Origin: Haliotis cracherodii
Taxonomy: Eukaryota
Assembly (NCBI RefSeq): GCF_022045235.1
Contig: NW_027266286.1
Location: 22,258,001 to 22,322,000 of the forward strand
Direction of reading: 5' to 3'
DNA length: 64,000 bases
The translations under genes were made by a program, and so were the position numbers. Below the pieces are notes generated by a model, which saw only the letters and a program-made list of their open reading frames with translations, made no database searches and had not been told where the DNA came from. Shown here piece by piece: positions 13,001 through 60,400 of this stretch (the stretch's first letter is position 1; each line of letters starts with the position of its first letter).

Positions 13001-15383
13001 CCTTATGTTTCACTGCCTTTCTGCAAAAGACATCTGATGGGGAAGTCGTTCTTGTGGTTCATCGGTGTCTGATGACCGCTTTGATCCATGTTTTCAATGT
13101 GGCATATCTATTAGGGCTGGGATGGGTAACTCGGGTACTTGGGTCGGGTGGGTCATGAGTAGGACCCGGGTACCCACAGGACACATGGTTAGTCAAGTCA
13201 TGTATTGTTTAATGACCAAAGCTCACTATAGCTCAGTGGTTACACTACAAGTCGCTAATTTCTCATTTCTTTCTGAAGATGCACACATTCCTTTTGATTA
13301 GGGCTGGGACGGGTAACTCGGGTACTTTGGTCGGATGGGTCCTGAGTAGGACCCAGGTACCCACAATACTATCCGGACCCATGGTTATTCACATGATAAA
13401 TTATGTATGACAAAACCTCACTATAGTTCAGCAGTTACACTACAAGTCGCTAGTGTTCACATTTCTTTCTGATGATGCACACATTCCTTTTGACTTCTTC
13501 AGTAAGTTTGAGTGAAGATGAAGTTTCAGTCAAGTTTGTACGCATGATCTGATCGTTTGATACATATATCTAAATAGTTTCTGTCAGGGCTGCAGTAAGA
13601 CAATTCCCAATCAGACATTTTATTCCCAACTCTTGAGACCTACAGTGGGTACCCGAGTAGGGTTGGGTAACAGGGGGTTTGGTACCCGGGTAGGGTCATG
13701 TTATTATCGGAGCCCGGGTAGTAAGTGTAGACTCGTCCCAGCCCTAATATCGATGATGCCGAGCCAGGAGCATTGATGAGGGAGTTGTCTATAATGAAAT
13801 AGGAACTATCTCTCAACTGAATTCCCGTGAAGATTCCGGGGTAAAATAGGTCTTCAGCAACCCATGCTTGCCGTAAAATGTGACTATGCTTGTCGTAAAA
13901 GGTGACTAACGGGATAGGGTGGTCAGGCTCGCTGACTTGGTTGATGCATGTCATCGACTCCAATTGCGTGGATCGATGCTCATGATGTCAATCACTGGAT
14001 TGTCTGGTCCAGACTCGATTATTTACAGACTGCCGTCATACAGCTGGAATATTGCTGAGTGTGGAGTTAAACAACCAACCAACTCAACTGGTGGTACAGA
14101 ACCGCTTCACTTCACTTCACAGGGGAATAAGGTCTTCATGACCATGATCGAATTCATAAACCTTCAATGTGAAGATGCTGTACCCACTGAGCATCGCTAT
14201 TCAAGCGATACCTTCTAGGGCTGGGACGAGTAGCTCGGATCGGGTAGCTCGGGTCGGGTGAGTACTGAGTAAGACCCCGGTACCCACAGGACTACCCGGA
14301 CCCATGGGACCTGTGAAGATCTGGGGTAGAATAGGTCTTCAGCAATCCGTACCTGTGTTTAGTCACGTGATATAGTGTTTAATGACCCAAAATTGTCTAA
14401 AACTCTATGGTCACACTACAAGTCACAAGTTTGCATTTCTTTATGACTGTGCACCAATTCCTTCTGACTTATATATGTTTGAATAAAGATAAAACTTTCA
14501 GGCAACTTCAGTGAATGCATGACCAGATCGTTTTATTGTTGTTTCTCAACACAGTTTGCCAGGTGTACTGTCAAACTTTTCCCTATCGGACTGTTTGTGC
14601 CTATCTCATGAGACCCACAGCGGGTACATGGGTAGGGTCAGGTAATATGGGGGTGGCTACCCGGGTAGTAAATTTGGACTCGTCCCAGCCCTAATACCTT
14701 CCATCTCCAGTTATGATTGCCCCACAACGGAGCTCTAGATAACTTTTTGAGCAATTCAGTTTTTACTTGACGGTATCTATTTTAATTGGGTTATTACATT
14801 TTTCATTGGATAACCAATATTATTTCATTCATCTGTTCATCACTATTGGGTTTTCCAAAAAATGAGTAAACATTTTGAGATATTTGAAATAATGTTTGAG
14901 ATGTACCATAACGGTTCTAAATATAGGCTTGCTCATAAATGTGTTTCGGAAATTAGCTCTGTTGTTCGCATGCCGAAAAAGCTTCATTGGGTATTTACGC
15001 ATGCTGTTTTCAAACAAGTTTTCCATTTAATGGTAATTGGGTTTTGAATAATTTTGGGGGGTATTTTATGCAAACACGCAGCTTATCTGTAACTCTGCCC
15101 ACAAGTTATGATGTCAGAGATTTATGTGGAGCTAGTGAGTTGACCGATGCCCAGATTGCTCATGAGTTACACATGGGAGGAATGTTGGCAATATTACATA
15201 TAATTACACGTTGTGTGTTGATGTTTGATGTGTAATGCATATTTTTATGGTCCTAATTGCCTACCATTTGTGTTACAGTCTGGAGGGTTTCGAGGTCATC
15301 CACCAATTTCGCAGCTACAGCGTGGCCAAACCACTGGCAACAGTGTACGGCAGAGGGCCCAGTCAGCCAGACACTACCACTAG
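1042..15383 (+). CDS. CEP126: CEP126 (KIAA1377)-like centrosomal protein gene, multi-exon, 5' end upstream of window
   Basis: Phase-consistent AG/GT exons: 1042-1164, 2046-3771, 4853-4991, 5528-6430, 7570-7710, 8317-8388, 9971-10044, 15279-15383 (TAG stop). Spliced peptide has ETNKRRKAQAQKRKYEVKREERRRQEILNQRREEQQRATEKYQR, RTPTDDEINWLWEKVRTCL, VTESMATFLAAE and SALSMEEQKLLESLEHLNDKL, which match from memory the conserved blocks of CEP126. The last two exons are less certain. Confidence 0.8.
4199..4662. mobile_element. hAT-like MITE (different internal sequence)
   Basis: TAGGGCTG...CAGCCCTA termini, imperfect 8-bp TSD ending ttctac. Confidence 0.6.
5095..5570. repeat. ~80-bp tandem repeat x6 spanning a CEP126 splice acceptor
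   Basis: Unit ...gatccattatcttag|gagcctccaaggct..cagccaa; the last copy is the start of exon 5528. Confidence 0.9.
8884..9048 (+). mobile_element. tRNA-derived SINE family A (representative copy)
   Basis: A box TAGCCTAGTGG, B box GGTTCGATTCC, (ACTC)n tail, TSD cttacatgttg. Other copies: +505-665, +1493-1645, +8408-8530, -9096-9269, -17358-17518, -18747-18908, -19048-19220, -30209-30376, -46906-47066, -47442-47612, +50762-50850, +52683-52850, -58492-58654, -59347-59505. Confidence 0.9.
9096..9269 (-). mobile_element. SINE family A
   Basis: Reverse copy, TSD gtttagttgga. Confidence 0.9.
10640..12660. repeat. Purine/G-rich minisatellite (51-71-bp units)
   Basis: Recurring ggtaggacaagatatggatat..ggtaggagtcagatggaagggg. 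Confidence 0.95.
13112..13746. mobile_element. hAT-like MITE with duplicated left end
   Basis: Left ~187 bp present twice (13112 and 13299); right TIR ends at 13746. Confidence 0.75.
13823..14082 (+). mobile_element. SINE family B
   Basis: Forward copy, TSD ctcaactg. Confidence 0.85.
14216..14693. mobile_element. hAT-like MITE (TAGGGCTGGGACG...CGTCCCAGCCCTA)
   Basis: 8-bp TSD ataccttc; related copies at 13112-13746 (left end duplicated), 49357-49762 and 57842-58262. Confidence 0.85.
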
Positions 15384-16655: not shown

Positions 16656-18191
16656 CTTTATTAGAGAAGTATATATATTTTGTTGCTGCAGTTTATGTAG
16701 AATGTATTTTATTGTTCCAACTTTATATTTTCTACAAGTTAGCTAGATACAAATGTTATCAAGGCTGTCCTGGGTATGGTGTAACAGCTTCATGATATTT
16801 TCAATGTTACCTCAATTCTTCAATTTGATTAAGTGCCTTGAAAGTGTTCTTAATGAATCTGTGTTATTAATGATATCACAATTGATAGTACATGTAGTCT
16901 GTATTATTGATGTTAACCAGGATAGAAAAAAACATTCCAGTATTGCAGTACATGTTTGTTGAAGATATTTCCAAATTGTCTTGTTCCCGTTTTTTTGTTG
17001 ACAATTATTGAGAACTTGTAAATCATGTCTTTTCAAATTAGGTGCTTTCTAACATTCCTGAGAGCTGCAATAAACTGAGATTTTTGCTAACTTGTAGACT
17101 TGCTAGTTTTCCCCCCCCCCCACTTTACATGGACAGGATAATGTGTTCCAGGAGGGACAGGATAAAGTTGCACCCTGATCCCATAAATTTAGCAAACATA
17201 GGCCTCTCAGCTGCCAATGTCATTTCTGTAAAAACGTAATAGGAACAAGTTTGTAGTTTAGCACCACTGTGGCCACACTCAGCAATATTCCAGCTACATG
17301 ACTGTGAGTCTGACCACCTGATCCTGTTAGTCGCCTCTTACGACAATCATGGGTTGTTGAGTGAGTATGGTTTTATGCTGCTTTTAGCAATATTCCAGCA
17401 GTATCACAGCGGGGGACACCAGAAACGGGCTTCATACATTGTAGCCATGTCGGGAATCGAACACGTGTCTTCGGTGTGAAGGGAGAACGGTTTAACCACT
17501 ATGCTACCCTACCGCCCCTCATGGGTTGCTGAAGAACTATTCTACCCTGATCTTAACGGGTTAATGGGAATATGTGCACATAATCTTCCAGTACCCACAG
17601 ATTGATGATGTCAAGCCTTAGAAAGCATGACAAATTACATGCAACACAGGGATTAGTGATGTAGTATGGTAAATAAACTTTAGAGGTATTGAGTGTGTTC
17701 AAAGATCAATTTTGTGCTGACAAGTAAGGGCAAGTCACACAAATATGAATTTTATTTGACATGCACAAATAAATATAAGGTTACATTTTCAATAATAGGT
17801 TGCACTTTTGCATGTTTTTTTGAGCCCTGTGATCAGTTTTACAAAAAACAAAAACACGGAATTTGTTTTCATTTTTTCTTTACAAATACATGGTATTACA
17901 AAATAAATATATATCTAATTATAGTACACAATATATATTGGTAATATACAAGTGTATACATACTGACCTCTAATACACCAGGCGTTTGGCTGATCAGGAT
18001 CAACTGCCTGACAGTGGTCAAGACAGTGGTCAAGACAGTGGTCAAGACGTGTCATTATTGAAATATTAACGTTGGACTGGTAGATTACAAATTGTACGAT
18101 CTGCCGCCAGCTTCTGACATCCACCCCTCGGTGTGTGTGTCCAGCCACTGAGAGACCTGTTGTCATATAATTCCATGTCATGGGGATCATG

Positions 18192-19438: not shown

Positions 19439-22400
19439 TCATGAATGAATGGAGCTGACAGGTAACATGACACCTTGTTTCTGGAGGAGGCGCAGAACGT
19501 CCAGGATTGAGTCCAGCTCTGCCCGAAACTTCTCGATCTCTTTGTTCTTCACTTCGACAATCTTCCTCCATTTCTCTCCTTCCTGGTCGAGCTCAAGGGA
19601 AGCAACTCTCTGAGTGTTGGCTATGATCTGCTTCAGTTCAGATTCCCGCTGCTCGTGGCGGTTCTCCATCTGAATAATCTTCTCCTGCAGAGTCTCGAAG
19701 TGACGCATTTCCTGTAATAGATAAAACGTTAGATCTCAGGTGTTGCCCATCCAAGAAACTTCAACAGTGAGAGGACCCATGAAGATTCCGGGGTAGAATA
19801 GGTCTTCAGCAACCCATACTTGCCGTAAAAGGTGATGTTCATGATAATAATCACTGGATTGTCTGGTCCAGACTCGATTATTTACAGACCGCCGTCATAT
19901 AGCTGGAATATTGCTGAGTGCGGCGTTAAACAACAAACCAACCAACCAATCAACAGTGAGAATCAAACTGATCAAAATGAGATCACAGAAAAGTGAGTAG
20001 GTTTGGTTACGATTGCTTTGAACACAAAGTATCAGCTTGATGAGGGAAGAAAGCCCTGATCACAGTGGGCCAACAACCAGCATGATGTGTCATCCCTGAT
20101 CTGCCACACTGAAGCCCATGTGTACAGTGAGAAGGCCAAAACTTACAGGAGAGTGACTCTTCTTGGCCTCTTGCAGCAGGTCCTGGAGCTTCTCAATCTG
20201 ATTCTGCTTGGCAGCTTCCCGTATCTTGAGGATGGATATCTGCTCTGCATCAACCTCTGACTTGGCCAGCTGCTGTTGCAGGTGCTGGATCATCACCTGG
20301 AACAGAACAGAGATTGAGGTGGTGTTCTGGGAGAGACCAGTCGATTGGTGAGGGATTGAGGTGGTGTTCTGGGAGAGATCAGTCAATCAATTGGTGAGGG
20401 ATTGAGGTGGCCTGGGAGATATCAATCAATCAATTGGTGAGGGATCGATGTGTTCTGGGAGAGATCAGTCAATTGGTGAGGGATTGAGGTGGTGTTCTGG
20501 GAGAGACCAGTCGATTGGTGAGGGATTGAGGTGGTGTTCTGGGAGAGATCAGTCAATCAATTGGTGAGGGATTGAGGTGGCCTGGGAGATATCAATCAAT
20601 CAATTGGTGAGGGATCGATGTGTTCTGGGAGAGATCAGTCAATTGGTGAGGGATTGAGGTGGTGTTCTGGGAGAGACCAGTCGATTGGTGAGGGATTGAG
20701 GTGGTGTTCTGGGAGAGATCAGTCAATCAATTGGTGAGGGATTGAGGTGGCCTGGGAGATATCAATCAATCAATTGGTGAGGGATCGATGTGTTCTGGGA
20801 GAGATCAGTCAATTGGTGAGGGATTGAGGTGGTGTTCTGGGAGAGATCAGTCAATTGGTGAGGGATTGAGGTGGTGTTCTGGGAGAGATCAGTCAGTTGG
20901 TGAGGGATTGAGGTGGTGTTCTGGGAGAGATCAGTCAGTTGGTGAGGGATTGAGGTGGTGTTCTGGGAGAGATCAGTCAATTGGTGAGAGATTGAGGTGG
21001 TGTTCTGGGAGAGATCAGTCAATTGGTGAGGGACTGAGGTGGTGTTCTGGGAGAGATCAGTCAATTGGTGAGAGATTGAGGTGGTGTTCTGGGAGAGATC
21101 AGTCAATTGGTGAGGGACTGAGGTGGTGTTCTGGGAGAGATCAGTCGGTTGGTGAGGGATTGAGGTGGTGTTCTCGGAGAGATTGGTCAACTGGTGAGGG
21201 ATCGATGTGTTCTGGGAGAGATCAGTCAACTGGTGAGAGATTGAGGTGGTGTTCTGGGAGAGATCAGTCAATTGGTGAGGGATCGATGTGTTCTGGGAGA
21301 GATCAGTCAACTGGTGAGAGATTGAGGTGGTGTTCTGGGAGAGATCAGTCAATTGGTGAGGGATCGATGTGTTCTGGGAGAGATCAGTCAACTGGTGAGA
21401 AATTGAGGTGGTGTTCTGGGAGAGATCAGTCAGTTGGTGAGGGATTGAGGTGGTGTTCTCGGAGAGATCGGTCAACTGGTGAGGGATTGAGGCAGTGTTC
21501 TGGGAGAGATCAGTCAATTGGTGAGGGATTGAGGTGGTGTTCTGGGAGAGATCAGTCGGTTGGTGAGGGATTGAGGTGGTGTTCTGGGAGAGATCAGTCG
21601 GTTGGTGAGGGATTGAGGTGGTGTTCCGGGAGAGATCAGTAACTGGTGAGGGATTGAGGTGGTGTTCTGGGAGAGATCAGTCGGTTGGTGAGAGATTGAG
21701 GTGGTGTTCTGGGAGAGATCAGTCGGTTGGTGAGGGATTGAGGTGGTGTTCTGGGAGAGATCAGTCAGTTGGTGAGGGATTGAGGTGGTGTTCTGGGAGA
21801 GATCAGTCAGTTGGTGAGAGATTGAGGTGGTGTTCTGGGAGAGATCAGTCGGTTGGTGAGGGATTGAGGTGGTGTTCCGGGAGAGATCAGTCAACTGGTG
21901 AGGGATTGAGGTGGTGTTCTGGGAGAGATCAGTCGGTTGGTGAGAGATTGAGGTGGTGTTCTGGGAGAGATCAGTCGGTTGGTGAGGGATTGAGGTGGTG
22001 TTCTGGGAGAGATCAGTCAGTTGGTGAGGGATTGAGGTGGTGTTCTGGGAGAGATCAGTCGGTTGGTGAGAGATTGAGGTGGTGTTCTGGGAGAGATCAG
22101 TCAGTTGGTGAGGGATTGAGGTGGTGTTCTGGGAGAGATCAGTCAATTGGTGAGAGATTGAGGTGGTGTTCTGGGAGAGATCAGTCGGTTGGTGAGGGAT
22201 TGAGGTGGTGTTCTCGGAGAGATCGGTCAACTGGTGAGGGATTGAGGTGGTGTTCTGGGAGAGATCAGTCGGTTGGTGAGGGATTGAGGTGGTGTTCTGG
22301 GAGAGATCAGTCAATTGGTGAGGGATTGAGGTGGTGTTCTGGGAGAGATCAGTCAGCTGGTGAGGGATTGAGGTGGTGTTCTGGGAGAGATCAGTCAACT

Positions 22401-25400
22401 GGTGAGGGATTGAGGTGGTGTTCTGGGAGAGATCAGTCAATTGGTGAGGGATTGAGGTGGTGTTCTGGGAGAGATCAGTCGGTTGGTGAGGGATTGAGGT
22501 GGTGTTCTGGGAGAGATCAGTCAATTGGTGAGGGATTGAGGTGGTGTTCTGGGAGAGATCAGTCGGTTGGTGAGGGATTGAGGTGGTGTTCTGGGAGAGA
22601 TCAGTCAACTGGTGGGGGATTGAGGTGGTGTTCTGGTAGAAATGAAATGAGTCCATAGGTAACAGAGTGCAGATAGTAACACCAAGCCCTGGGAGATGTT
22701 GCCCAAGAGATGTGAGGTTTCCAGCAGTGGGATTTAAGACACTTTTGTTCAGTCATATCACTCAAATCAGTACTTTTCAGTTTGAGTTTGACGGATGGTT
22801 TGGTTCAGCAGGCTTGAACTCAGACAGAGTATTAGTTGGCATGGTGGTGCTGAGTGGGCTGCGTGAGGCTGGGGAAGGATTAGGGTACTAGTTTTCGGAG
22901 GTGGAGTGGGGTTGTTTTCACTGGTGTGGAATGATGTGTGATGTATGGAAGAAAGGAAGGCCTACCTCCTGACTGTCACACTTGCCGTGCAGCTCAGCCA
23001 GTTTGGAGGAGGAGTGTTGGAAGGCCTGGTCACTGAGCACTCTCTGCAGTTCTTGCTGGTGGGACAGTCGCAGGCTGTCAATCTGAAACAGGGGAGACAA
23101 CTCTTCGTTGAATGGATCTTACAAACTTTGGCTCAAAGTCAATATCATTAAAATCAGACCTTAGTTCTCGCTATCGCTAAACAATGATCTGAGGACATCC
23201 CATTAAGGGTCACGTCAGAGTGACTTTTCATCCAACCAATCAGAGCGTCGCTTACCAGATCATGAAAGTGACTGTCGGAATGTGTTTTCTAATCATGCAA
23301 CCACGAAATATTTAACACGGGGTATTACGAACGACAGTTATGGCCATATATAAGCCATTCTAGAATGTTCTTATCAGTTTTAATTTTTTTTAATCGAGAA
23401 TACATCAAAATATGTTTCGAAGCGTAGTCGCCAGTTTAAAACTAGTCTCAAAAAGCTCGAGAAAGCTGCCTTCTGATTGGCTAACGTCGATTTCTTGTCA
23501 ATCATTTCACTGGTCGGTCAAAATTCGCGAAAGTTCGTTCTGACATGACCCGTACTGGGATGTCCTCAGATCTTTATTTGGCGGTAGGGAGAACTAAGAT
23601 CTGATTTTAATGAGATTGACTCAAAATTGGCCCAAGTTAAGCCTTCAACTTACTACAACAAGTACTACAACATCTAAAAAACGTACCATTGGTAATATCA
23701 AACCTTATAAGAAAAGATCTTTAACAATTTATATAAAATGTCAACGCCTGAGAATAATCAGTCTTGATTATCTGTTGAAATATTCCATTCGGCGTAAAAG
23801 GCAAAATATGGTTGAAAATTTTTACAAACCTGTAGAGGTTATGAATTCTCTGATGAAATCCTCCTTGGGGCACTTATTGCATTTTCCTTGCTCAAGAAAA
23901 TCTACATGACATAGTTGTAACCATTTTCCTTAATAAAAAATGTTACCACACAAAAAACTTCGTTTTTGTATGATATACGACCACCCTTACGGGGCCTCAC
24001 CACCAACGGCGCCTCACGCCAGGGGGAGCAACTCTCACCCAAATCACTTTCCATATGTCAAATGCTGACGGAATGTGGGGCGGTGGGTGGCCGTGCCCCA
24101 AGGAGGATTTCATCAGAGAATTCATAACCTCTACAGGTTTGTAAAATTCTCTTTCTGATTAAATCCTCCTTGGGGCACTTATTGCATCAGGACAGACTCC
24201 CAAAGATAATCTAGGAAGTGGCATCCGTCAGCAACAGGCGTAAATAAATACATCGTATTTAAATATTCAACAGAATAAAATATTGAGTTCAATAAATGGA
24301 ACCAACCTTATCGTGAGGCACCACCGTCGAAAGGCGGGGGCTAGAGACAGGGCGTGGTCGACCATATATTATGATAAAGCCTGTTTTTGCGGCTTGTCAT
24401 AAGTTGAGAACTCGAAACACCTCCCACCCCCACACTTTTTTTGAACAAGTGATGTAGGGGCGTAGATCACGAGAGACCATAACCAGCGCTGAGCTAGGCC
24501 AGAGGGTCCCCGAGGATCGAAGGAGCGCGTGCGCAAAATACGAGTATTATCGAGTAGTAAGGAATGATATTTATCGACCGCAGAAGATAAAATCCGGACC
24601 ATTACCGAACAGTATAACCGGAGGACTGTCTAAAATCTCGAATGCTCAATCGGCTAGAGATTAGAACTTTGCCCCGTTCGGAGAACTGACTGACCAAACC
24701 GAGTACGCTCGCTTGAGCGTCTGTCGAGTTGGTAAGGTTTGATGAATCGTGCTCGGCTGGCTCCAAATAGCCGCGGAGCAGATCTGCTCAATGTGCAGAG
24801 CCGCGGCGTACGCTTTTGACGCAGCCACTGCTCTAACCTAATGAGCCTTCAACCTGGTAGGGGGGTCCCTGCCTGTAAGCGTATACGCTGTACAAATGGT
24901 TGAAACTATCCACCTCGAGATAGATTGTTTACTCGCAGGTGAGCCAACCTTCCTACCGCCGTAACAGCAAAATAGTTGGTTATCCTTACGGACACCAATA
25001 TTTCTGCTGATATAGGCCTTGAGAGTCGTGCGGACATCCAAGACATGAGCATGTCTTGCAGTGGTCCCCGACGAGGAAGGCTGTGAAAGAGCAGGTAGCT
25101 CAATAGGAGCCGTTCACGTGGAAGCGTGTGCGACCCTTTGACGGTAAGAGTCCGGTAGTCGAAAACTGACTCTGTCCCGGTGATATTTATCGACTGCATG
25201 GAAGACAGTTATTTCGGGATCGGCTGACATAACACGAATGTCGCCTACCCGTCTGCCGGACGTTACCACTACAAGGAATGCCGTCTCCCAGCTCAACAGC
25301 TGAAGAGAGAGAGACGACAGATCCCGAAAGGAAGGACCGGACAGCCAATCGAGAATGATTGACAAGTCCCAAGACTGATCCGCCGAACTGGCGGTCGGAT

Positions 25401-42400: not shown

Positions 42401-45400
42401 GAAGCCCTAGCTTCCAATTACAACACGAGTGGAGCCCTAGCTTCCCATTACAACACGAGTGGAGCCCTAGCTTCCCATTACAACACGAGTGGAGCCCTAG
42501 CTTCCCATTACAACACGAGTGGAGCCCTAGCTACCCATTACAACACGAGTGGAGCCCTAGCTTCCCATTACAACACGAGTGGAGCCCTAGCTTCCCATTA
42601 CAACAAGAGTGGAGCCCTAGCTTCCTTTTACAACACGAGTGGAGCCTTAGCTTCCCATTACACGAGTGGAGCCCTAGCTTTCCATTACAACACGAGTGGA
42701 GCCTTAGCTTCCCATTACAACTCGAGTGGAGCCCTAGCTTCCCATTACAACACGAGTGGACCCCTAGCTTCCCATTACAACACGAATGGAGCCCTCGCTT
42801 CCGAATTTCAATCTTGACTCAAACCTACTTCTGGGACTCCCTTCCCTGTAAAATGGTCTCGGATGTAACTTGCAAACGACTCCACAGACTGCAACAGACG
42901 TGTCTCAGGCACTTTCCCTTGAAGATTGTGGTGGGCGGTCCTTGGAGACTGGGTACCTGGAAGTGCAGAAAAACACAGTCCAAACTCAGCACAGCTTGTT
43001 TCCTTTGCAATGAGCTAAGTCACAGAGCCTGCCTACGTATCGGAGTAGAATATCTGATGGTAATGTTTCTGTCCATGTAGTAGGAACAAACACCATATCC
43101 AGGGAAGAGAATGGATATTATCCTTTTCAGCTGAAACTTCTTTGGAGTGGAGTGTGGTCCATAATTTGGGGATATTTTTGGGGAAGCCATCAGATTTTGT
43201 CAAATTTGTGGTTACTAAATTCGCGGAAATTTCACGGATCCGCTGAAGGCTTTCACCCATGCAGGATTGGACCCTCCCTTACTTGGTGTAAACTTGGTCT
43301 TGTGGTTGAATAACCTTGCATGTAAGGAAGTTAGTACGAAGACTCAGAAGACTTCTCAATTTTCTTTAAGAAAGTCAAACCTATTGGGTTTGAAGACCTT
43401 GCATGGTAGGATGCGCCACCGTTATGCTCGCACTGACACACTACTAGTACCTGTAACTTTGTGTCTGCTCACGTCTGCCGGGGACCAGGTCCGGTTGCCA
43501 GGTCGTGTTGATTTGCCAGGTGACCTTGATGGTGAACGTGAAGGTGAACGACTAACGGAGCGCTTCCCATACCCCGAACTCTGGATGTGGGAAAATCTGG
43601 ATCGGGACTTCTTACCTGAAACAAACACGAAAGTTGTAAGTCATGAGTTTGTTTGTTTTGTTTGTTTGTTTGTTGTTTAACGCCACACTCAGCAATATTC
43701 CAGCTATATGAAGGTGGTCTGTAAAATAATCGAGTCTGGACCAGACAATCCAGTGATCGACATCATGAGCATCGATCCACGCAATTGGGATTGATGACAT
43801 GTATCAACCAAGTCAGCGAGCCTGACCACCTGATCCCGTTAGTCACCTTTTACAACAAGCATAGTCGCCTTTTATGGCAAGCATGGGTTGCTGAAGACCT
43901 ATTCTACCCCGGATCTTCACGGGTCTGTAAATCATGAGACTGTGGGTACACGTTGAATATATTCTCATATTTAGGGCAGCACCAACATATATATTTATTA
44001 ATACACGTCTTTCAGTCCCTCACCAACTTTTTTGTTCATCTGCTTTGTTTTCAGTTACACTAAATTTTGTGTGAAAACAAAATCAAGAACGCAGGTCATG
44101 TCATTAAGATCCTAACAGAGATCAGTGAGAACCTGATTGATCTCACTGACCTAACATATTGACAAAAGACCACCTTCCTGATTCCACGATTCATCAGATG
44201 ACGAAAGGTTATAAAATACAGTAACCATGGTAACCTGACTCACCTTTAACCTCATCTGTCCTGGCATTGGTGAAGGTACCACTGGCGCCATCTGTCTTTT
44301 CCTTCACAGACTGCCAACAGACATGGTGTGTATGTTATACTGACATGTAGACAAGGTAGTGTAGCTGATGTATGTGTGAACGTGAGAGTAGTCATCATAT
44401 GTTATCCAGCCTTAGAAGTTAGTCTTTTTTATGACTAGTCTAGGGGAGGTGAGGTGAAATGGAGTTTAACGTCGCGTCCAAGATTATTGCACTTATATAG
44501 CGACGTGCATGTACGTGTGTGTGTGTGTGTGGCTGCTTGTACTAGTCCGATTTATAGTGCTAGCTCACTGAGATACCATGCCGCAGTTTAACATGAATAC
44601 CCCACTCAGACACAGTATACTGACTCCGAGCCGACCAGTCCTTGTTTTAGCCCCTTAATGCCGAGCGCCAGACAGGGTAACAACAAGTACCATCCCATAA
44701 CGTCTTTTGGTATGACGCGGCCATGGAACAAACCCCAGACCTTCCGCTCTCCGGGTGGACTCTCTACCACTAGACCACGGTGGCTGTCCTAACTGACAAG
44801 TGGCCGTGTTTAACCCCGTGGTATATCATATTCTCATTCCTAATTTACCACACTCAACAACAGCCTTGAGGTTTGTAGTCAGGGGCAACAGCTACTTGCC
44901 TCAAGGTGTGAGGTGACTTGGATCATAATGACGTGTCAGTTATTGCATAACACATGACAGAGCTCCAGATAAGCTTTTGGTGTTGTGGGTATTTTACCCA
45001 TGCATTTAAAAATCATTGGGTATCAGTAATTCTATCTGGGTATTCAAATTTCTGTTACCCACTAGTTTTTACACATGTGGGTATTTAAGTTAAATATTTA
45101 AAAACACTATTCATCTAGTCCCTGCAAACTGGTGTCGTGTGGGTTCGAGAGCTTTATAGGACTCCAAAATACCACGATACTTTCACAAGAAAGTGTGATG
45201 ACCAATGATCATGATGTTACTGTCATCGTGGAGTTTGGCAAGGTTGACGGAATGCCTGTTTATAATTTCAAAATGATTTGCGGATTTGCTAAACAAATAC
45301 GCAGGGTTACTTCACAAAATTTTGATGATTCGCACAAGTTTTATTTTTGTAGCGTATCTGTAATGTCATTTTGCTGCGTATTTCTGCAGATACGCAGCTT

Positions 45401-48400
45401 ATCTGGAGCTCTGCATGATTAGGTATACAACAATCACCAGTGACACCCATTAGTTGGGTTAGACAGCAACTGTTGACATTAGCAAACAATACACAGCAAA
45501 CCATATGTGTTATCATACATGGGAGAGTTCAAGGTCAGGCCGATGTGGCATAAACGGTGGATCTTCTCCCAGTTCCACAAACTTTAGTGATCTTAGGACT
45601 AAGACGATCTTATAGACTTACAAGAGTCAATGTGCCAAGGTCGTTCAGTGGAACAGAACCCTGGTCGATAACATATTGGATGGCATACACAGGGTTCACT
45701 CCAGGAATTTTCAGACATGGTCCCATTATGTGAAAATTTCAAATATTCCAGAGGTACACCCACACTTGCCCATACAGCACAATGTCAAAATGCCCCATTG
45801 TATTTGGCCTTTTTAAGAATTTACGGGTTAAAAGCACGAGGTCCCCCCTAGAATTATCCCTGCATAACAATGCTGTTTGTTTCTTGTTCAATGCTGCACT
45901 CAGCCATATTATGGCTATATTGTTGCAGTCTGCAAATAATCGAGTCTGGACTAGTGAAAAGGTAACACAGAGGATCGCATATACTACATGTATTTGTTCT
46001 ACAGGTTATATATTGGAATACACCATCTATTCTATCTGGCAAACATGCTATATACTGGATATTATAGTCTACAGCTTACATATCGGGTATAATATATAGC
46101 CTACATGTAACATACTGCATGACATATAAAGACTACTTGAAACATATTGAAAGAATGAGTATCGTAACACATTTGTACACATTCTGATTCTTCAGCTGAA
46201 GCAAAATGAGGTCGCGTTTGCAAATTGATAACATTATATAAAACAAAGATAGACTTCAGTGAAATAAAGTTGACATTTGATATGTTTTTAATCATTTTCA
46301 CTCATAATGACAATGAGCAACATACAGAATAACCTGTCAGAAACTCTGAATCATGAAATTCCTGTCCTCTCAGCTTGTTTGACATTTTCTAATACTGGAT
46401 TACTGGATAGTATACACGATATGACCTACATTGTACTCTAGATGGCATGCACCGTCTCATGTACATGTTCAGTGTTCCCAGTCTGTCTGTAGTTGTTGAT
46501 TATCTAGCAGGTTTGATTAAACCTGTTTGACTGTTTGATTAAAATTACATCCTTGAATCCCAAGTTTTGGATAACATTTGAATGACAGTTCTAGTGTCTA
46601 TAATATGATGTCTACTGGTCTACTGGTATTCTAGAAGACAGGGACACTTATGGTATGGTATATATTCAGTGGCTTACACAGTTGGTGTTCGTGTTATCAC
46701 GGGAATGCAAACATGCAAAATTTGGATTAAAATAAAATAATTAAATGCTATGTTTTACTATCAAACACCCTTCAAATATTATGAAATGGATCTGCAGTGA
46801 AGACATTCAGGAGGTAGGAATGTGTTTATTGAAGCAGCTTGCAAAGCCAAATTCATACTGAAGCTAAATAATTCCTCATTGCATTGATTTCACCTGATAA
46901 TTTCGGTGAGTAATGCGCTTTTATGACGCTTTTAGCAATATTCAAGCAATATTGCAGCAGGGGACACCAGAAATGGGCTTCACACATTGTACCCATGTCG
47001 GGAATCAAACCCAGGTTTTCGGTGTGACAAGTGAACGCTTTAACAACTAGGCTACCCGTCCGCCCTCTGATAGATTCAAATGCAATGCATACATTTTTGT
47101 AATCACATTTCACTCTTTGTGTTTTCATGTATAGAATGGGGTGTTCAAAAGTAAAACAGATTTCATTATTTTATTAAGTACTTGCGTTTCTGTGATGGTA
47201 TATACTGCACAGTTCTCCACAACAACCTCTCCACACATCACAATATTAACATAAAACCAACACCTGCTTAACCCTGCACATTCCATGAAGACATTAATAT
47301 GAAACTAACCACACTTGCCAATCTTGCACAATCTAAGAATTTAAATAATGTTATACAAGACATGCATGCTAATCTTGCACATTCCACAAACGAAAATAAT
47401 GTTAAACAAGACACGCTCACTACTCTTGCACATTCCACAAATGAGTGAGTGAGTGAGTGAGTATGGTTTTACGCTGCTTTTAGAAATATTCCAGCAATAT
47501 CACAGCGGGGGACACCAGAAATGGGCTTCAGACACTGTACCCATGTCGGGAATCGAACCCGGGTCTTTGGCGTGACGAGCGAACGCTTTAACCACTAGGC
47601 TACCTGACCGCCCTTCCACAAATGAAAATAATGTTAAACAACCCACACCTGCTGATCTTGCACATTCCACAAATGAAAATAATGTTAAAAAACACACTCT
47701 CTACTCTTGCACATTCCAAGCATGAAAATAATGTTAAAAAACACGCTCGCTACTCTTGCACATTCCAAGCTTGAAAATAATGTTAAAAACACACTCGCTA
47801 CTCTTGCACATTCCATGAACTTGAATACTGTTAACCAACCCACACCTGTTGGTGTAGCACACACGTGACATGATGGAGACAGTGTTGTGAAACCCGTGCA
47901 TTGCACACAGACATGAAGCTCCTGGCGACACATGCAGTACTTGCATACAGGCGCTGGATGCTGCGGCCTCTCGATCCCTTCAATAGTCACAGGGTTTATA
48001 CAGTAAACAAATACATATATGACAAACAAAATATTGTAAAGACATAATCTTGAACCAACAGAGTTGTATACATGTTTCACCATGATAGATTCTTGTTGTA
48101 CAGAGAGAGTAACTTACGACGGCGATGACGGGCTGGTACACCTCTGTGTCGTCCGTGTGGGAGTGGTCGAAGCCCCCTCGTTGGTCCTCCTCCATGTGCT
48201 GCTGATGTGCTAGACCTGAGAGAACAAGGTTAATGCTGATGTGAGTCAGGTACAAACTACAACAGTAATGTTACTTGTCAGTTTAAACCTAGCTCATATT
48301 ACTCCACACAGCTGGGGGCGCCACGGTAGTCACTCAAGTTGGACATCCCCTCCCCTCCATCCGTATCTTGTGAATCTGCCCTTACCTCTGAACAGAGCTG

Positions 48401-51400: not shown

Positions 51401-54400
51401 TTTCGTATATAAACATTTCAGGCTGTCAGCATAAACCATGAAATTTATCTTTCAACTATGTTGTTTTTCACCAAAATAATATTCTAATAAGAGCCCCCAA
51501 TTTCTAATTTTGAGAGCGCCCTGGGCGCTTATTACGTCGAACACGGTAAACATAATAAATAATGACCCTTCTCACTAAAAACTTCACATAACACCATAGA
51601 TCATGTTGATTGTAAATACATTACATCATGTCCAGACAACATCACCACAGATCGTTGAATAAATAAATGAATTGAACTTGTATCAGAAGTTACCTGTGCC
51701 TGTCCGTGTCTTCAGCGTGTCAGGAAATGTTTGCCCCAGGTTGTCATGGTTACCCTCCCTGCTGCCATCGAATGGCGCGCTGGCCTTGGGGGAAGTGGTG
51801 GTGTTGAGGGTGGAGTCGAGGGAGTCGAGCAGCGAGACTGTAGGTGAAGCCGGGTACATAGAGTGATGTACATCATGTATAGCTGGTGGGTTGGTGTTTG
51901 TTTGTTTGTTGTTTTATGCCGCACACAGCAATATTCTAGCTATATGACGGCGGTCTGTAAATAATCGAGTCTGGACCAGAAAATCCAGTGATTGACAACA
52001 TGAGCATCGATCTACGCAACTGGGATCGATGACATGCATCAACCAAGTCAGCGAGCCTGACCACTAGATCCCGTTAGTCGCCTCTTACTGCAAGCATAGT
52101 TGCCTTTTACGGCAAGCATGGGTTGGTAAAGACCTATTCTAACCCGGATCCTCATGGGTCTATAGAGTGATGTACATCATGTATAGCTGGTGGGTTGGTG
52201 ACATCTGTTGCCGTATTATGACTTACAGCATCAGTATTAGTATCAGCAATCAACATTGAGTGAGTGAGTGAGTGAGTGAGTGAGTGAGTGAGTGAGTGAT
52301 GCCAGGACAACTAGCTTTTACAAAAATCACCAATTATTTATAAAGTATTTAACTTTAAAATGTCTTTACATTTACAGATTAAATAATAAAAAACATCAGC
52401 AACATACCTTTGGACAGCATACTCGGCTTTTGTTGTGATGAGTCCTACAATGGGGAAAAAACAAACCTTATTTCCAGAGGCAAGGCAGTGTTAGAAACTG
52501 GCACTAGTTCTGTAGTCCTTGCCAAACTGCCCAATAGTTAATGCATCATGAGGACTGCCCATGCATGTAAACAATGACATAACAATGATAAAACAAAGAA
52601 TATAAGTAAAATATTTGTTATTGAAGTATATACAGGATTGGGCAATTTGGGGGACTGGTTGCTAATGACACTGGGGGGGGGGGGGGGGCGGTCTGGTAGC
52701 CTGGTGGTTAAAGCGTTCGCTCGTCACGCCAAAGACCCGGGTTCGATTCCCAACATGGGTACAATGTGTGAAGCCCATTTCTGGTGTGCCCCGCCGTGAT
52801 ATTGCTTTAATATTGCTAAAAGTGGCGTACAACCATACCCACTCACTCACTAATGACCCTGGGACTTAGTGGTAATGCGTCGGATGTGTCCTAGGGTTAC
52901 CCTTAGCACGCAGGGTACTTGCGGACATTTGTTGTTTTGTTTTTTATAAAAATACACATAGTTCATTGAGCTGGTCGCAATGTGGAGTATGCTACATCAA
53001 TATATCGGAGAAAACATTCCGATTTCCACTGTCTGAGTGTGGTGTGGTTCTTAAATAAACTAAAAATTAAATTATGTACAATAGCTAAGGTATCATTAGG
53101 ACTAGCAAAATTTGCCATTTTTAAGGGCTTAGCTATATGTTGACATTATAAGGACTAGTGGACTAAAACTGTTAGTTTCTATTGCTGCATGACAATGTAT
53201 TACAAATTGTCTTAACACATGAAAACTAATGTCAACAATCATGAAAATGTTCCTCAATAATCATAATAGACCCTTAGTTCAAAGCCTGAGTCTTGTAAAT
53301 ACATATTTGGTCTCGTAAGCTCAGCTCCTTATCACGCTCATAGTCCATACACTACATTAAACTCTAGTTAGGCTTGGAGACTCAAACATTCTTGTCACTG
53401 CCTGAATGATGCCAGTGTATCTCAACGAGAATGACAAGTTACCTTGACAAGCATGAAACTTATCTCAAAAAGCTATCAATTTATCTTAACAAGCATGACA
53501 AAGTCTCTCAAGCATGACAATGTCTCCCAAGCATGACAAAGTCTCTCAAGCATGACAATGTCTCTCAAGCAAGACAAAGTCTCTCAAGCATGACAATGTC
53601 TCTCAAGCATGACAAAGTCTCTCAAGCATGACAAAGTCTCTCAAGCATGACAATGTCTCTCAAACATGATAATGTCTCTCAAGCATGACAATGTCTCTCA
53701 GGCATGACAATGTCTCTCAAGCATGACAATGTCTCTCAGGCATGACAATGTCTCTCAAGCATGACAATGTCTCCCAAGCATGACAATGTCTCTCAAGCAT
53801 GACAATGTCTCTCAAGCATGACAATGTCTCTCAAGCATGACAATGTCTCTCAAGCATGACCCTGAAAGAGACTTACCCTCTCTGTTGGACCTCCATGACT
53901 ACCGGAAACCCTGGAGTGATCCAGCATCGGTGCACTTTGGGAGTGGTCCACCGCCACACCAGCTAACTTGGGGGACAGCGTTGTGGCAGTCTGACTCAGC
54001 TCCCGGTTCAGTTGTCCGTAGTCTATTGTGCCCTCAGCTTCCACCTCCTGCAGCAAGCAATGTCTGCTGTAACTTGGGAACTTCTCACATCTCATAGTAA
54101 AGAAAGTTAACTTGTGATACTCGCCTAATACTTTAATAGAACATATTTATCAAATGTCTCACAGTTAGCGAAAACTCACACTACGGAGCCTCTGGTTGTC
54201 CATAAAACTCAACAATGGAGATAACTCACAGTATAAAACCTCTATTTTATTTACTAACTCACATCATAAAACCACTATTTTATTTACTAACTCACTGTAT
54301 AAAACCTCTATTTTATTTACTCACATCATAAAACCTCTATTTTATTTACTAACTAACATCATAGAACCACTATTTTTTTTTACTAACTCACAGTATAAAA

Positions 54401-57400
54401 CCTCTATTTTATTTACTCACATCATAAAACCTCTATTTTATTTACTAACTCACATCATAGAACCTCTATTTTTTTACTAACTCACATTATTGAACCTCTA
54501 TTTCATTTAGTCACTCACATTATAGAACCTCTATTTTATTTACTAACTCACATTATAGAACCCCTAATTTATTTACTAACACACATAATAAAACCTCTAT
54601 TTTATTTACTCACATAATAAAACCACTATTTTATTTACTAACTCAAATCATAAAACCTCTATTATATTTACTAACTCACATCATAAAACCTCTATTTTAT
54701 TTACTAACTCAAATCATAAAACCTCTATTTTAATTACCAACTCACATAATAAAACCTCTATTTTATTTACTCACATAATAAAACCACTATTTCATTTACT
54801 AACTCACATCATAAAACCTCTATTTTATTTACTAACTCACATAATAAAACCTCTATTTTATTTACTAACTCACATAATAAAACCTCTATTTTATTTACTA
54901 ACTCACATTATAGAACCTCTGTTTTAATTACTAACTCACATCATAAAACCTCTATTTTATTTACTAACTCACATTATAGAACCTTTATTTCATTTACTAA
55001 CTCACATCATAGAACCTCTATTTTTTTACTAACTCACATTATTGAACCTCTATTTCATTTAGTCACTCACATTATAGAACCTCTAATTTATTTACTAACA
55101 CACATCATAAAACCTCTATTTTATTTACTCACATAATAAAACCACTATTTTATTTACTCACTCACAGCATAAAACCTCTATTTTATTTACTAACTCAAAT
55201 CATAAAACCTCTATTTTATTTACTAACTCAAATCATAAAACCTCTATTTTATTTACTAACACATGATTAAACCTCTATTTTATTTATTAACTCACATTAT
55301 AGAATCTCTATTTTATTTTCTAACTCACATAATTGAACCTCTATTTCATTTACTAACTCACATTATAGAACTTCTATTTTATTTACTAACTCACATTATA
55401 TAATCTCTATTTTATTTACTAACTCACATTATTGAACCTCTATTTCATTTACTAACTCACATTATAGAACCTCTATTTTATTTACTAACTCAAATTATAA
55501 AGCTCTAGTTTATTTACTAACTCACATTATAAAGCTGTATTTTATTTACTCATTCACATTACTGAACCTCTATTTCATTTACTAACTCACATTATAGAAC
55601 CTCCATATTATTTACTAACCCTCACATCATAAAGCTCTATTTTATTTACTAACTCACATTATAGAACCTCTGTTTATCTACAATCTCAATCATGGAAATA
55701 TTTCACTATATAAAACAGACCCTGGAGGATCTCATGACACTGTAGGAGGTGGGGATGCATACTTTTTTCACCTGACTCAATGCCTGTGTCAACTGCACTA
55801 TCATGTGTATTAGGGGTAATGGGTCACCACTCCCTGTCTGCAAAGCCCGGACCAGAAGCTGTGAATTACCCACCATCTCACCAACAGGGATTACTCACGT
55901 TATAGAACCTCTGTTTATCGGCTAATTCATCAAGGGTGTCCATGCCAACTTTTTCAGGGCTGTCTTGTCTGTCAGTTAACATGTCTGAAGGAAGATGCAT
56001 GTTATTATCACCAGACACATGGAGGACTACACAGTAATGCTTTCCTAACTACAGTCAAGTCTCGTTAATCCGACACTCGTTTATCCGACAATCGGCTTTA
56101 TCCGACACTAATGATGGGAACCGATTTAATCAGTGCTATTTAGACCCATTAATCCGACAGTCTCGCACTCCGACTCCGTCACACCTAATTTGCAACAAAT
56201 TGCTGGAATCACTCATTAATCAGTCTCGTTAATCTGACACAGTGATCAGCGTACTCCGTGGTCATCTGCCCGCGAGTACACAGCCAGTGTTTTGATGCGA
56301 GACGAGTCGGCGAGTAGCTGCATATTTCAACGGATGCAGAGATAAACATGTTTAACAATAAACAATAATCAAAACAGGATTAATCACATGCCAGATTACC
56401 TCAATCTCATTAAAATCGGATACAAGTTCTCGCTACTTTTAACAGTATTCCAGTTATATTGCGGCGTGTCAGCTAAATGTTGGAGGAAAGCCTGAAGTGA
56501 TGCAGGTCTCAGACGTTTACCACTTCGGTAAAACCCACGAGCACGGGTATGGTGCCGACAAACCTAGAAACATAATCGGGGCGAACTGGGATTCAAACCC
56601 ACAATCATAGGTTTCTGGCCTGCCCAAGGGACGCAACTCTGCACAGCGAATCGCGGCGCCTTAGACGACTGGGCCACTCGTGTCCCCCTGTCCATGAGAG
56701 GTCACCCACACAAGTCTCACCTGCTGTGCAACTGTCTCGTGTCGTGTCCAAGCTGGAGTCAAAGCCAACAATCCTACAAAAGAACACAGTATTAGGGATG
56801 ACTAGCGCACGATTTAACTGAAGCAATTGCTGCAAATCTATACCCAAAAATGATTCATCTACTCTAAAACACAGGTTTCATGGCTTTATTTCACATAATA
56901 ACATGGGCATACATGCACTACTTTCAAGATTCGGTATATAGTTAGGCTAAAACATATAATAGTCTTGGTTCTCAGGCACCCCTGCATCATCATAAAGTTC
57001 ACTGCACGTTTCGTTTTTATTTTCATTTAAAAAAAATATATTAAAAAATCCTGGAATATTCCAACAGCAGTCAAATACTGTATTCCAGTAATTCACTCAT
57101 CAAGGAATACATTTATGTAGGTTGATTGTATTTGGTTACACAACTGTTTATTTGGTAACATACTAGTTTGAACAATTAAGAAAATAAAAACACACCGCCC
57201 GCCCACACTATATTTTCAAAAGCCATTACCTGAGAACCAATTCTTATATTTTTTTAAGCCTAAGGGGTGCTGTTTGAGAGTTAAAAGAGGTACCCGAAAC
57301 AGTCTGATGGAAAGTTATAACTGTGAATGTTATGTCATTTCAAACAAGGAATATTTTAAAAAAAAGCTAATGAAGGAATATTTAATGGAGCCTGAGAGAA

Positions 57401-60400
57401 CTTAACAGTCTGATACAAAGTTATAACTGTGTCACGTCATTTCAAACAAGGAATATTTTGAAAAAAAGCTGACGTTTTTTAAAATACTTAATAGAGCTTT
57501 TGATTATCAATATTTTGATGGTATTAGATAACGGAAACCATCGAACCGTCTAACATGGTATCAATGTCAACTATTGATATTTTAACTGGTGATCAATAAA
57601 TGTCATTGGACCACATCACTGAATTATAGTTCACTATTTTGTAACGTCTGAGTCCTACAGCATCTACCCAAATGTCGTGTTGAGATCACACCCACCTGGC
57701 AGCTTCTCCTGCGTCATTCTCTTCCGACTTCTCCGATACTGGAACAAGATTACAAGTATACTGCATCTCTTCTATCAGTGTTTGAAATAAAAAAAATTGC
57801 CAGACTGCCATCAAGGCACACAGACTCTAGAAGCTGCAGGCTAGGGCTGGGACGAGTCCAAATTTACTACCCGGGTACCAGATCCCCTATTACCCGGTCC
57901 TACCCGGTCCTACCCGGTACCCACTGCAGGTCTCAAGATTTGGGAACAAAATGTCTGATTGGGAATTGTTTTATCGCTGCCCTGGCCAAAACTATTTAGA
58001 TTCTTGTATCAAAGGATCAATACACTGAAGTTGACTGAAGTTTTATCTTTACTCAAACATATACCTGCCAAAAAGAATGTGTGCATCGTCAGAAAGAAAT
58101 GCGAACATTAGCGCATGTGGTGTAACCAATGAGCTATGGTGAGTTTTTGTCATCAAACAATATATCACGTGACTAACCACGGGTCCGGGTAGTCCTGTCG
58201 GTACCAGGATCCTACTCAGGTCCTACCCGACCCGAGTACCCGAGTTACCCGTCCCAGCCCTACTGCAGGCCCTGACTAAACTCTTCCAGCCCTAATTTAA
58301 AAAACTGCAGCTTATTGTGACAAATAAATCAAGACATAAATTTACCACAGGCCAAAAAGACCAATACAAATTTGAAACTATGGGCCCATCCCAAGATCTA
58401 CCTGCCATGGGCCTACGGGCAGGTGCTGTTTTTTAACACTGTTTACTATCTGTTAGGTCTTTCTCTCTTCTCTGTTCACACTTTAGAAAGTAAGTGAGTG
58501 AGTATGGTTTTACGCCGCTTTTAACAATATTCCAGCAATATCACTGAGGGGGACACCAGAAATGGGTTTCACACATTGTACCCATGTCGGGAATCGAACC
58601 CGTGTCTTCGGCGTGACGACTGAATGCTTTAACCATTAGGCTCCCCGGCCGCCCCTTTTACAAAGAGATTGAAATACATTTCTCCATGTTAAATATAACT
58701 ATCAACATGAGATAATTCAATCTCATTAAAATCAGACCTTAGTTCTAGCTAAACAAAGATCTGAGGACATCCCATTACGGGTCACGTCAGAACGACCTCT
58801 CGCAAACTTTGACCGATCAATGAAATGACTGGCAGAAATGGACATTAGCCAATCAGAAAGCAGCTTTCTCGAGCTTTATTACATTAGTTTCAAACTGGCG
58901 ACTACGCTTCGAAACATATTTTGATGTATTCTCGGTTAAAATTTTTAAAACTGATAAGAAGAACAATCTGGAATGGCTTACAGATGGCCTAGATTGTATG
59001 GATAAAATAATAAAACCCATAAATGTCGTTTGGAATACCCTCTGTTAAATATTTCGAGGTTGCATGATCCGAAAACACATTCCGTCTGTCACTTTCAGGA
59101 TCTGGTAACTTACGCTCTGATTGGTTGGATGAAAGCTTGTTCTGTTGTGAACCGTAATGGGATGTCCTCAGATCTTTGTTCAGCGATAGCAAGAACTAAG
59201 ATCTGATTTTAATGAGATTGGAGATAATTACGTGTAATGTAAACTAGCTCAGACAAGGGCTCCTTTACCGTGCTTGCTAACTCTGAAGAAGTAACTATGT
59301 GCAAGAACACAGAGGAGAAAGTCCATTTGATTTGACATGGTTCTTCGAGTGAGTATGGTTTTACGCCGCTTTTAGCAATATTCCAGCAATATCACGGCGG
59401 GGGACACCAGAAATGGGCTTCACACATTGTACCCAAGTCGGGAATCGAACCCGGGTCTTCGGCGTGACGAGCGAACGCTTTAACCACTAGGCTACCTGAC
59501 CGCCCCGGTTCTTCAACGAACACGATGAGGATATCAGCACATCACAGTGTCATCAGGACCTCATCTTTGGCACGTTCAAACTCAAGTCTGACACATGAGT
59601 GAGCGATTTGTTACGCTGCTTTAGCAATATGCACCATACTGTGCCGTGTGTATAACTGAGTCTACCACATCATGATTGTGTGAGCAACGTGTGTTTTCTA
59701 AACATACTACACACTTACTGTCTTCCAAGCTGTCTTTGCTCATGGAAGCTTCTGTCCGCCCTCGGCCGGCTCGTTTCGGGGACACCTAAAGCAAAACACT
59801 TATATCACCAAACAATGAAACTGTTTTTATATACTCATTCTATCTCACACTGTGCATTTCTCTTTCTTCTTTCAATCTTGGTGTGGAAACGCTCTTAAAC
59901 AAAGTTTCCAGCTTTAAAAAACATTACACCCGAACACATCCCAGTATCACCATGATCACGACCCAAACAAATGGGTCACGTACTGTAGCCCTGTGCATAT
60001 CAACCAAGTCAAACTGACCACCTGACAAAATCTGCAATATCATTCTTTCTTAGAGTGGACAGGCTAGTGCATTCTGATGTGGGTATGGTTGGGTGGGCAT
60101 TTAGCGTGTGAGATAGGGTAAGTATATAAATATACAATTGATTGTAAAATTTTCAAATTTTTAAACTTATCCTACCTCACACAATGCATTTTATCCCACA
60201 GTTGGACAATGAGGCGCTGAAACCCTAGCCTGTAATGGACTGCAGCCTTGAGATGTACACTAGGAAGCTGGTGTTTAACAAAGCTCCAACCATTAAGATT
60301 GTTACATAGTTAAGTGTGAAAAAAGACATGAACTTGTGAGTGGGTAAAACACTATAAAAAGTGCCAAAACCCATTTACATTACCAGGACACAACATCTTG

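Follow-up and report, generated by a model that had tools for sequence, protein, structure and literature searches.

A short interspersed nuclear element (SINE) of ~280 bp, flanked by target-site duplications (TSDs), lies in a 64,000-nt window of the Haliotis cracherodii genome (NW_027266286.1). The window is the whole stretch of DNA that was scanned, and its numbering is used for all the positions below. The original prediction, made from the letters of the window, proposed that the head of this SINE family folds into a four-way junction with kissing loops and might be a ribozyme or a novel RNA element. The sequence at 43925–43832 (minus strand) is as it was described there. Its observations were confirmed in part, and its interpretation is partly supported: the head is a conserved structured RNA originating from the 5' ends of long interspersed nuclear elements (LINEs), but the predicted fold is a different one (Table 1).

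By sequence, there is very little doubt that this is the LP ('LINE promoter') head published for mollusc SINEs and for Nimb/RTE LINEs (PMC4758252). In the parts of that paper available to us, LP-SINEs are reported from Haliotis and from other molluscs; their head of ~70 bp is common to Nimb-17_LMi, I-3_DR and RTE-9_CPB (Matetovici et al. 2016) and is presumed to be a promoter. The SINE family and the head sequence are already known, the latter being in print since 2016 as the LP domain. We found that the head is homologous to LINE 5' ends and that the copies have TSDs and a terminal tandem repeat. Hdi_LP and Hmi_LP share this LINE-derived ~70-bp head, the TSDs, the terminal tandem repeat and the lack of a tRNA head; the consensus length of Hmi_LP (255 bp) is also similar, and this exact family presumably corresponds to the Hdi_LP/Hmi_LP consensus. 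Pectinoid MESC SINEs carry an LP-type head of ~70 bp as well (PMC4758252).

The head had been said to have no recognisable A and B boxes. Consistent with this, no tRNA or other Rfam family matched it, and Rfam and ARAGORN found no tRNA-, 5S- or 7SL-derived head for RNA polymerase III (Pol III) on it. The loop of its P4 hairpin is without T55 and C56 of the B box. In five relatives (L083, L126, L135, L149 and L154) a tRNA-like segment immediately follows the LP head, as is reported for scallop MESC SINEs.

The window contains at least eight head copies or fragments, one of them truncated near 1471. The five copies listed earlier as 5'-intact do begin with GACC(C/T); their first base, G1, lies at 452, 14308, 19774, 43925 and 52160, two of which had been placed one base off. 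The heads at 13822 and 17562 and the truncated one had been overlooked. We counted 45 heads in 380 kb (38 position-picked stretches of 10 kb), which extrapolates to ~1.4e5 heads genome-wide. The reported 22-nt duplication of P4 is real (43883–43862 and 43861–43840 in the focal copy). Two P4 units are the majority form (23 of the 34 scored copies; one unit in 8, three in 2 and none in 1). A partial duplication of the head was seen in another H. cracherodii locus (L008).

Table 1. SINE copies of the window and predicted structural parts of the LP head in the focal copy
Feature	Position	Strand	Remark
Whole SINE copy	43648..43925	-	LP-type head, body, LINE-like tail, (CAAA)n repeat
5' TSD	43926..43938	-	13 bp, adjoining G1
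3' TSD	43635..43647	-	1 mismatch to the 5' copy
Tail	43675..43716	-	Like the 3' end of the genome's EN-RT-RNase H LINEs and of the tRNA-headed SINE
G1, A2	43924..43925	-	Two unpaired 5' bases ahead of PK1
PK1 stem S1, 5' strand	43920..43923	-	CCCG; covariation
Loop before S2	43919	-	U, 1 nt
Stem S2, 5' strand	43912..43918	-	P2 of the original prediction; 7/7 pairs changed on both sides
PK1 stem S1, 3' strand	43908..43911	-	CGGG; covariation
PK1 loop 3	43900..43907	-	Ends in conserved AGAAUA; long insertions 5' of it in relatives
Stem S2, 3' strand	43893..43899	-
P3 hairpin	43880..43892	-	4 bp; loop 43888-43884 = PK2 5' strand; covariation
First P4 unit	43864..43878	-	Degenerate; within the 22-nt duplication
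Second P4 unit	43842..43856	-	Stem and 7-nt loop, T-arm-like; CpG-decayed here, pairing kept
UAA linker and 3' G-run	43832..43841	-	PK2 3' strand; only 3 bp in this SINE family
Head copy	381..452	-	Single P4
Head copy	13822..13915	+	Duplicated P4; overlooked earlier
Head fragment	14308..14348	+	Without 3' part
Head copy	17306..17562	-	Interrupted in P3 by the tRNA-headed SINE
Head copy	19774..19835	+	Internal deletion behind P4
Head copy	52067..52160	-	Duplicated P4

The LP head is predicted to form two tandem pseudoknots

We are highly confident, from the covariation and the alignment model, that the head adopts a double pseudoknot at the RNA level. In the original fold, two pairs of C-rich and G-rich strands were cross-assigned: the 5' end was paired with the 3' end (P1), and loop 2 with loop 3 (the kiss). 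Covariation instead favours pairing of the 5' end with loop 2 (pseudoknot PK1) and of loop 3 with the 3' segment (PK2), while the stems P2, P3 and P4 were upheld by covariation and pair counts. We used a partner-swap permutation, in which pairing with a strand's own partner is compared with pairing to another family's strand, on one representative per family, chosen by eye. With 22 representatives, PK1 gave p=1.5e-4 and PK2 p=1e-4, and S2 and P3 gave 0/20,000; these p-values and the pair counts below are optimistic, as the families are related. This set followed a stricter register rule (L156 and L208 dropped, L214 replaced by the window copy, three registers off). A first pass on 24 representatives, some with mis-set registers, had given p=1.5e-4 for PK1, 0/20,000 for PK2, p=0.94 for P1 and p=0.34 for the kiss. 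The pattern persists across 16 look-alike groups and, for the seven viruses described below, when these are taken alone (PK1 p=0.009, PK2 p=0.03).

In 24 model-aligned sequences, 87.8% of the paired cells hold pairs, compared with 68.4% after shuffling and 35–45% after sliding, and both sides have changed at 7/7 S2 pairs and 3/4 P3 pairs. The alignment model was fitted to S2, P3 and P4 and not to the pseudoknots; at fixed register, PK1 paired in 86.5% and PK2 in 67.8% of cases. The folding energy is unremarkable (z from −2.0 to +0.2 in five single copies).

The four-way junction with kissing loops is highly improbable as the functional fold. The sequence of this single family does allow both of its helices, 4 bp each, and this speaks against the double pseudoknot. 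Neither helix covaries, however (P1 and kiss, respectively: p 0.91 and 0.18 in 22 families, 0.84 and 0.13 in the 16 groups, 0.81 and 0.55 in the viruses). The C-G to U-A change in the copy ending at 452, cited as compensatory, is independent CpG decay: the 3' change is found in 1/12 copies with the 5' change and in 5/54 without it (Fisher p=1.0).

In two metagenome families, insertions have lengthened the loop of PK1 to 60–77 and 141–154 nt; all of them lie on the 5' side of AGAAUA, and the start is unchanged. S2 keeps at least 5/7 pairs in 13 of the 15 parsed long-loop relatives (60–154 nt); two more were unparsed. Families first taken for 'half-motifs' proved to be whole motifs with such insertions. 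The pair below P4 varies (U.U, G-C, G.U, U-A and A-U); if it is counted, the stem has 5 bp and, together with its 7-nt loop, resembles the T-arm of tRNA. The P4 loop agrees with the T-loop motif in U, R, A and the 7-nt length; its positions 3–4 vary, and position 2 is A instead of G or U, which deviates from the consensus YGNRA and UUCRA given in the portion seen of bioRxiv 10.1101/2022.12.26.521914.

The scallop 'Nimb-17 homology' block in Suppl. Fig. S2 of PMC4758252 by eye looks alike in its C-run start, AGAAU, P4 block and 3' G-run, and its S2 differs in sequence yet pairs. The parts of that paper available to us give no fold, virus occurrence or leader resembling the hepatitis delta virus (HDV) ribozyme for the LP head. 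As far as the searched literature shows, these three observations appear to be new; we found no description of them, although prior description is possible, as subscription journals, figures and bioRxiv supplements lay outside the search. No paper matched the literal motif sequence, and the 2016 paper was the only LP-SINE literature found. Kojima 2018, in the part consulted, reports RTE domains from 5' untranslated regions (UTRs) in SINE bodies, and its one printed 23-bp motif is a different sequence.

LINEs carry the motif behind an HDV-like leader

Many intact LINEs of the H. cracherodii genome were recovered with an endonuclease query. Consistent with an origin of the head from LINE 5' UTRs, the motif was present in 18 of the 20 intact endonuclease-reverse transcriptase (EN-RT) loci fetched, at +58. 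Their second open reading frame (ORF2) contains EN, RT and RNase H (2/2 scanned), consistent with the I group, and from the available parts of PMC4758252 they are presumably Nimb. In 3/6 loci the likeness of the SINE tail to the LINE tail exceeded that of all 200 shuffles; in a fourth, the match above shuffles falls on a tRNA-SINE copy inside the locus, and two were not above. This partial resemblance suggests that the mobilising partner is likely to be a related LINE subfamily.

All the motif-bearing LINEs have a common 57-nt leader at their start, upstream of the motif. The Rfam HDV-F-prausnitzii model (RF02682) aligned over the exact extent of the leader in 5/5 loci with 27.5–29 bits, below its gathering score of 44 (E 0.16–0.38). 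Our own HDV descriptor (helix order, G1.U, L3, GG, J4/2 C) was matched by 4/4 LINE leaders and 0/28 other upstream regions. The leader is an HDV-like ribozyme candidate with a minimal P4, heading intact EN-RT-RNase H LINEs of multiple subfamilies (L290-L339, e.g. L293:1846-1902), and the 3' strand of its P2 adjoins the LP motif. It fits the family of HDV-like ribozymes of R2, L1Tc/ingi and RTE, as described in the portions seen of PMC3383444 and PMC5786205. The SINE head, in contrast, does not follow the nested HDV order of helices (P1-P2-P3-L3-P1-P1.1-P4-J4/2-P2); it forms a module of its own, placed behind the leader.

Of the 549 exact matches to the LINE motif, the first 30 were scored: 28 had an intact leader start, two were cut inside the leader and none started at the motif. 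Together with 19 earlier occurrences (one shared), this makes 0/48 LINE copies with a start there, a result that speaks against the motif's edge as a site of cleavage or initiation. The median identities over 40 sampled LINE pairs were 98% for the leader, 92% for the motif, 87% for the downstream UTR and 79% for the ORF2 protein. The motifs of the HDV-led LINEs differ at 2–3 of the near-invariant unpaired bases. A variant pattern for a divergent LINE head returned only SINE copies among the 30 of 47 matches viewed. Dense LINE clusters with several nested insertions were seen at C2:20.8-21.75 Mb and C6:4.2-5.7 Mb.

The motif occurs in 3' UTRs of RNA viruses

Nearly all the relatives were found by seeding on the P4 block, and the invariance of P4 is therefore partly built in by the search. 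At least 122 metagenome loci were obtained, mostly animal SINE heads. In viral contigs, the whole motif was present at 7 of 11 P4-seeded loci, and a looser seed added one more. This set comprises six distinct RNA-virus contigs (L047 and L061 being near-duplicates) and one DNA-virus contig of 212 kb. A model built from 22 non-viral sequences recovered 8/8 viral loci with 44–75 bits, whereas 15 decoy loci picked by a similar pattern scored at most 18.8 bits. A scan for PK1 only gave no new full motif among the 121 viral matches listed.

In the RNA viruses the motif lies 3' of the last long open reading frame (ORF), with AGAAUA 29–222 nt past the stop codon (six contigs) and P4 14–119 nt from the contig end. 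By Pfam, three of these contigs have RdRP_3, one has RdRP_4 and two have capsid domains only. The contig L045 has a tandem second copy of the motif, cut off, at its 3' end. The presence in RNA-virus 3' UTRs indicates that the motif works as RNA. Tandem copies are also found in an animal element (L101:1362-1520). The DNA-virus contig has the motif between genes (L049:9978-10057), ~110 nt upstream of an ORF of 1056 codons.

The viral position and the layout bring to mind the tRNA-shaped structure (TSS) of Turnip crinkle virus (TCV), an element close to the 3' end in genomes of tombus type, which is made up of three hairpins (H4a/psi3, H4b/psi2 and H5) and two pseudoknots that stack (PMC5336357 and PMC5712577, in the parts consulted). 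The motif could accordingly bind ribosomes or translation factors, serving as a 3' cap-independent enhancer in viruses, an aid to translation of uncapped LINE RNA behind the HDV-like cut, and a tether by which the SINE catches nascent ORF2 protein. We consider this somewhat unlikely. It is compatible with an exonuclease block. On this reading something else would fix the 5' ends, unless PK1 did so in addition. The motif is predicted to have three hairpins and two pseudoknots (PK2 being weak or absent in 8/22), RdRP_3 of tombus type is found in 3/6 RNA-virus contigs, the motif directly follows the HDV-like leader in LINE 5' UTRs, and P4 has T-arm geometry, with a variable pair below it and variable loop positions 3–4. 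The A at position 2 of the P4 loop, however, is off the T-loop consensus, no Rfam model matched the window copy or the viral loci, and the SINE has no run of five A before PK1. The likeness is one of layout: the TCV element has ~100 nt compared with ~75 here, its H5 is far longer than P4, and the LP motif is placed at animal retrotransposon 5' ends. Moreover, a TSS-like binder by itself does not explain why the SINE ends are fixed at PK1.

Matches were also obtained in contigs of bacterial genomes, and 9/25 hold much or all of the motif. We rejected a bacterial occurrence, as these nine loci look like animal or other eukaryotic retroelement DNA, with LINE ORFs and microsatellite tails, mostly near contig ends (L192, L194, L197, L198, L199, L200, L207, L208 and L209; in L208 the motif lies ahead of ORF1/EN). 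They are likely contamination or chimeric joins.

SINE 5' ends are sharp and follow PK1

The 5' ends of the SINE heads are sharp. Scoring the start as the first BLAST-aligned base in 444 kb (the 38 stretches and the window), 25/53 heads start at G1 and 36/53 at bases 1–3. TSDs were called in 33/66 G1-starting copies from all the SINE sets: 17 adjoin G1, 8 overlap it by 1–2 bases, 5 end 2–8 bases earlier and 3 leave one extra base (G, C, C). A cap-derived extra G is therefore not apparent (a single G in 1/33), a weak negative, as it presumes that this enzyme copies the cap. Small-RNA reads showed no start peak at G1, with too few reads for one (6, 31 and 2 in three runs with a related label). 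The start base is GA here, A in one metagenome family (14/21) and G in another (14/16). As both the start base and the loop length vary between families, the SINE ends follow PK1 rather than a fixed sequence or spacing.

Such ends could come from an internal promoter for RNA polymerase II (Pol II), as proposed in 2016, the RNA fold then having a second, separate role as in Pr77 of L1Tc. The terminal position, the purine starts and the place ahead of or instead of tRNA heads are in keeping with this (PMC4758252, available parts; same layout in L126/L135/L149), and a dual promoter/ribozyme has a precedent (PMC3383444, portion seen). The covarying pairs and the RNA-virus occurrence, on the other hand, need no DNA role, the spacing from the start to the conserved block varies by >100 nt, the extra G is rare and no LINE copy starts at the motif. 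We therefore hold a Pol II promoter to be decidedly unlikely. A Pol III promoter is disfavoured by T-runs of 5–8 within the head in several relatives.

A new class of self-cleaving ribozyme, cutting 1–2 nt 5' of PK1, would also account for sharp TSD-adjoining ends without an extra G, and a compact double pseudoknot with near-invariant unpaired bases suits a ribozyme. It would have to be attenuated or silent in the HDV-led LINE, where the differences at 2–3 of such bases could mean relaxed catalysis, and inefficient in viruses. Linear RNA viruses do carry ribozymes in UTRs, but those in the parts seen of PMC13725137 mostly precede ORFs, and cutting at the position found here would take off the viral 3' end. 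That no LINE copy starts at the motif, although the motif is better conserved than the ORF2 protein, also speaks against cutting. The head had been reported to fit none of the known ribozymes, and the Rfam models agree: hammerhead, twister, twister-sister, pistol, hatchet and hairpin gave no match (window copy, E up to 10; seven viral loci, E up to 1). We regard this reading as unlikely. Catalysis is the less favoured interpretation, given that the LINEs have an HDV-like leader of their own and that none of the 48 copies begins at the motif; the head is probably not a ribozyme. Either a ribozyme or a Pol II promoter would have to be silenced in the LINE, and neither sits well with the viruses; we rate both below a passive block.

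The LP head as a possible exoribonuclease-resistant RNA

Exoribonuclease-resistant RNAs (xrRNAs) are recognised by a block to XRN1 and a ring of 15–16 nt around the 5' end. Three observations, namely that SINE ends lie 1–2 nt before PK1 in unrelated families, that the HDV-led LINE shows none of this kind and that the motif resides in 3' UTRs of RNA viruses, are all compatible with a passive exonuclease block; the absence of LINE starts at the motif is as expected of such a block and not of a cutter or an initiator. We infer all function of the LP motif, and our assignment of the head as an xrRNA, a roadblock to 5'-to-3' decay that fixes the SINE 5' ends, is tentative and a little short of probable. 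More broadly, we lean to the view that the motif belongs to a horizontally mobile class of RNA (a double pseudoknot with a T-arm-like hairpin, found in animal LINEs and SINEs and in unrelated RNA viruses) that gives promoterless retrotransposons exact 5' ends, either by stopping a host exonuclease (an xrRNA in ~1e5 genomic copies) or, less likely, through new self-cleavage chemistry.

If the xrRNA assignment is correct, SINE copies would be transcribed within host Pol II transcripts, enzymes of the XRN1/XRN2 type would trim the RNA until halted by PK1, and the protein of an I-group (Nimb-like) LINE would bind the common tail and insert the trimmed RNA. The end of the LINE itself would come from its HDV-like leader, the motif being a second guard; in viruses, a stable 3'-terminal RNA would remain. 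As for the conserved P4/PK2 half, it may act as a brace for PK1 or as a binding site for a host factor.

Viral xrRNAs (flavivirus classes 1a/1b/2, Tombusviridae/Luteoviridae and Benyviridae) are likewise pseudoknot-based, using the 5' strand, and lie in viral 3' UTRs, often as tandem copies (PMC8374639, in the parts available). The central three-way junction of flavivirus class 1/2 is absent from the LP model, in which PK1 is of the H type and precedes a second pseudoknot that has a hairpin nested in it; the LP motif also resides in retrotransposons, and its resistance is presumed.

Several points weigh against the xrRNA assignment. The viral motif, so close to the contig end, would protect little RNA, and in two viral contigs it keeps close to that end and not to the stop codon, as would better suit an enhancer at the 3' terminus. 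LINE copies trimmed to the motif were absent from the 48 scored, leaving no positive sign of LINE trimming. The near-invariant sequence of P4, partly a product of the search, is not explained by a mechanical block, and the starts are always purines, like transcription starts. As for the fold, its statistics are inflated by the relatedness of the families, and PK2 has fewer than 4 bp within 9 nt in 8/22 representatives, including this SINE.

The LP paper left to experiment the question of how SINEs without Pol III promoters are transcribed and obtain exact ends, and a 2021 review, in its available parts, counts xrRNAs of cellular origin among the things yet to be discovered (PMC8374639). The ~75-nt motif can be made in vitro, so that both questions are experimentally tractable. 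If the assignment holds, an RNA module would have been exchanged between retrotransposons and RNA viruses, and it could become a stabilising part for RNA-templated gene insertion tools.

Other features of the window

A tRNA-headed SINE (17360-17520, minus strand) with a ~9-bp TSD sits in the P3 hairpin of an LP-head copy, which indicates that it moved after that copy. Rfam tRNA matches at 8890-8961, 19148-19206, 47538-47609 and 59430-59501, one of them tRNA-His by ARAGORN, are probably heads of a second SINE family, which has a similar tail, and not tRNA genes. Strong GC-skew blocks, up to +0.58 and −0.54, at 10001-14000, 20001-24000, 34001-38000 and 54001-56000 are probably tandem repeats.

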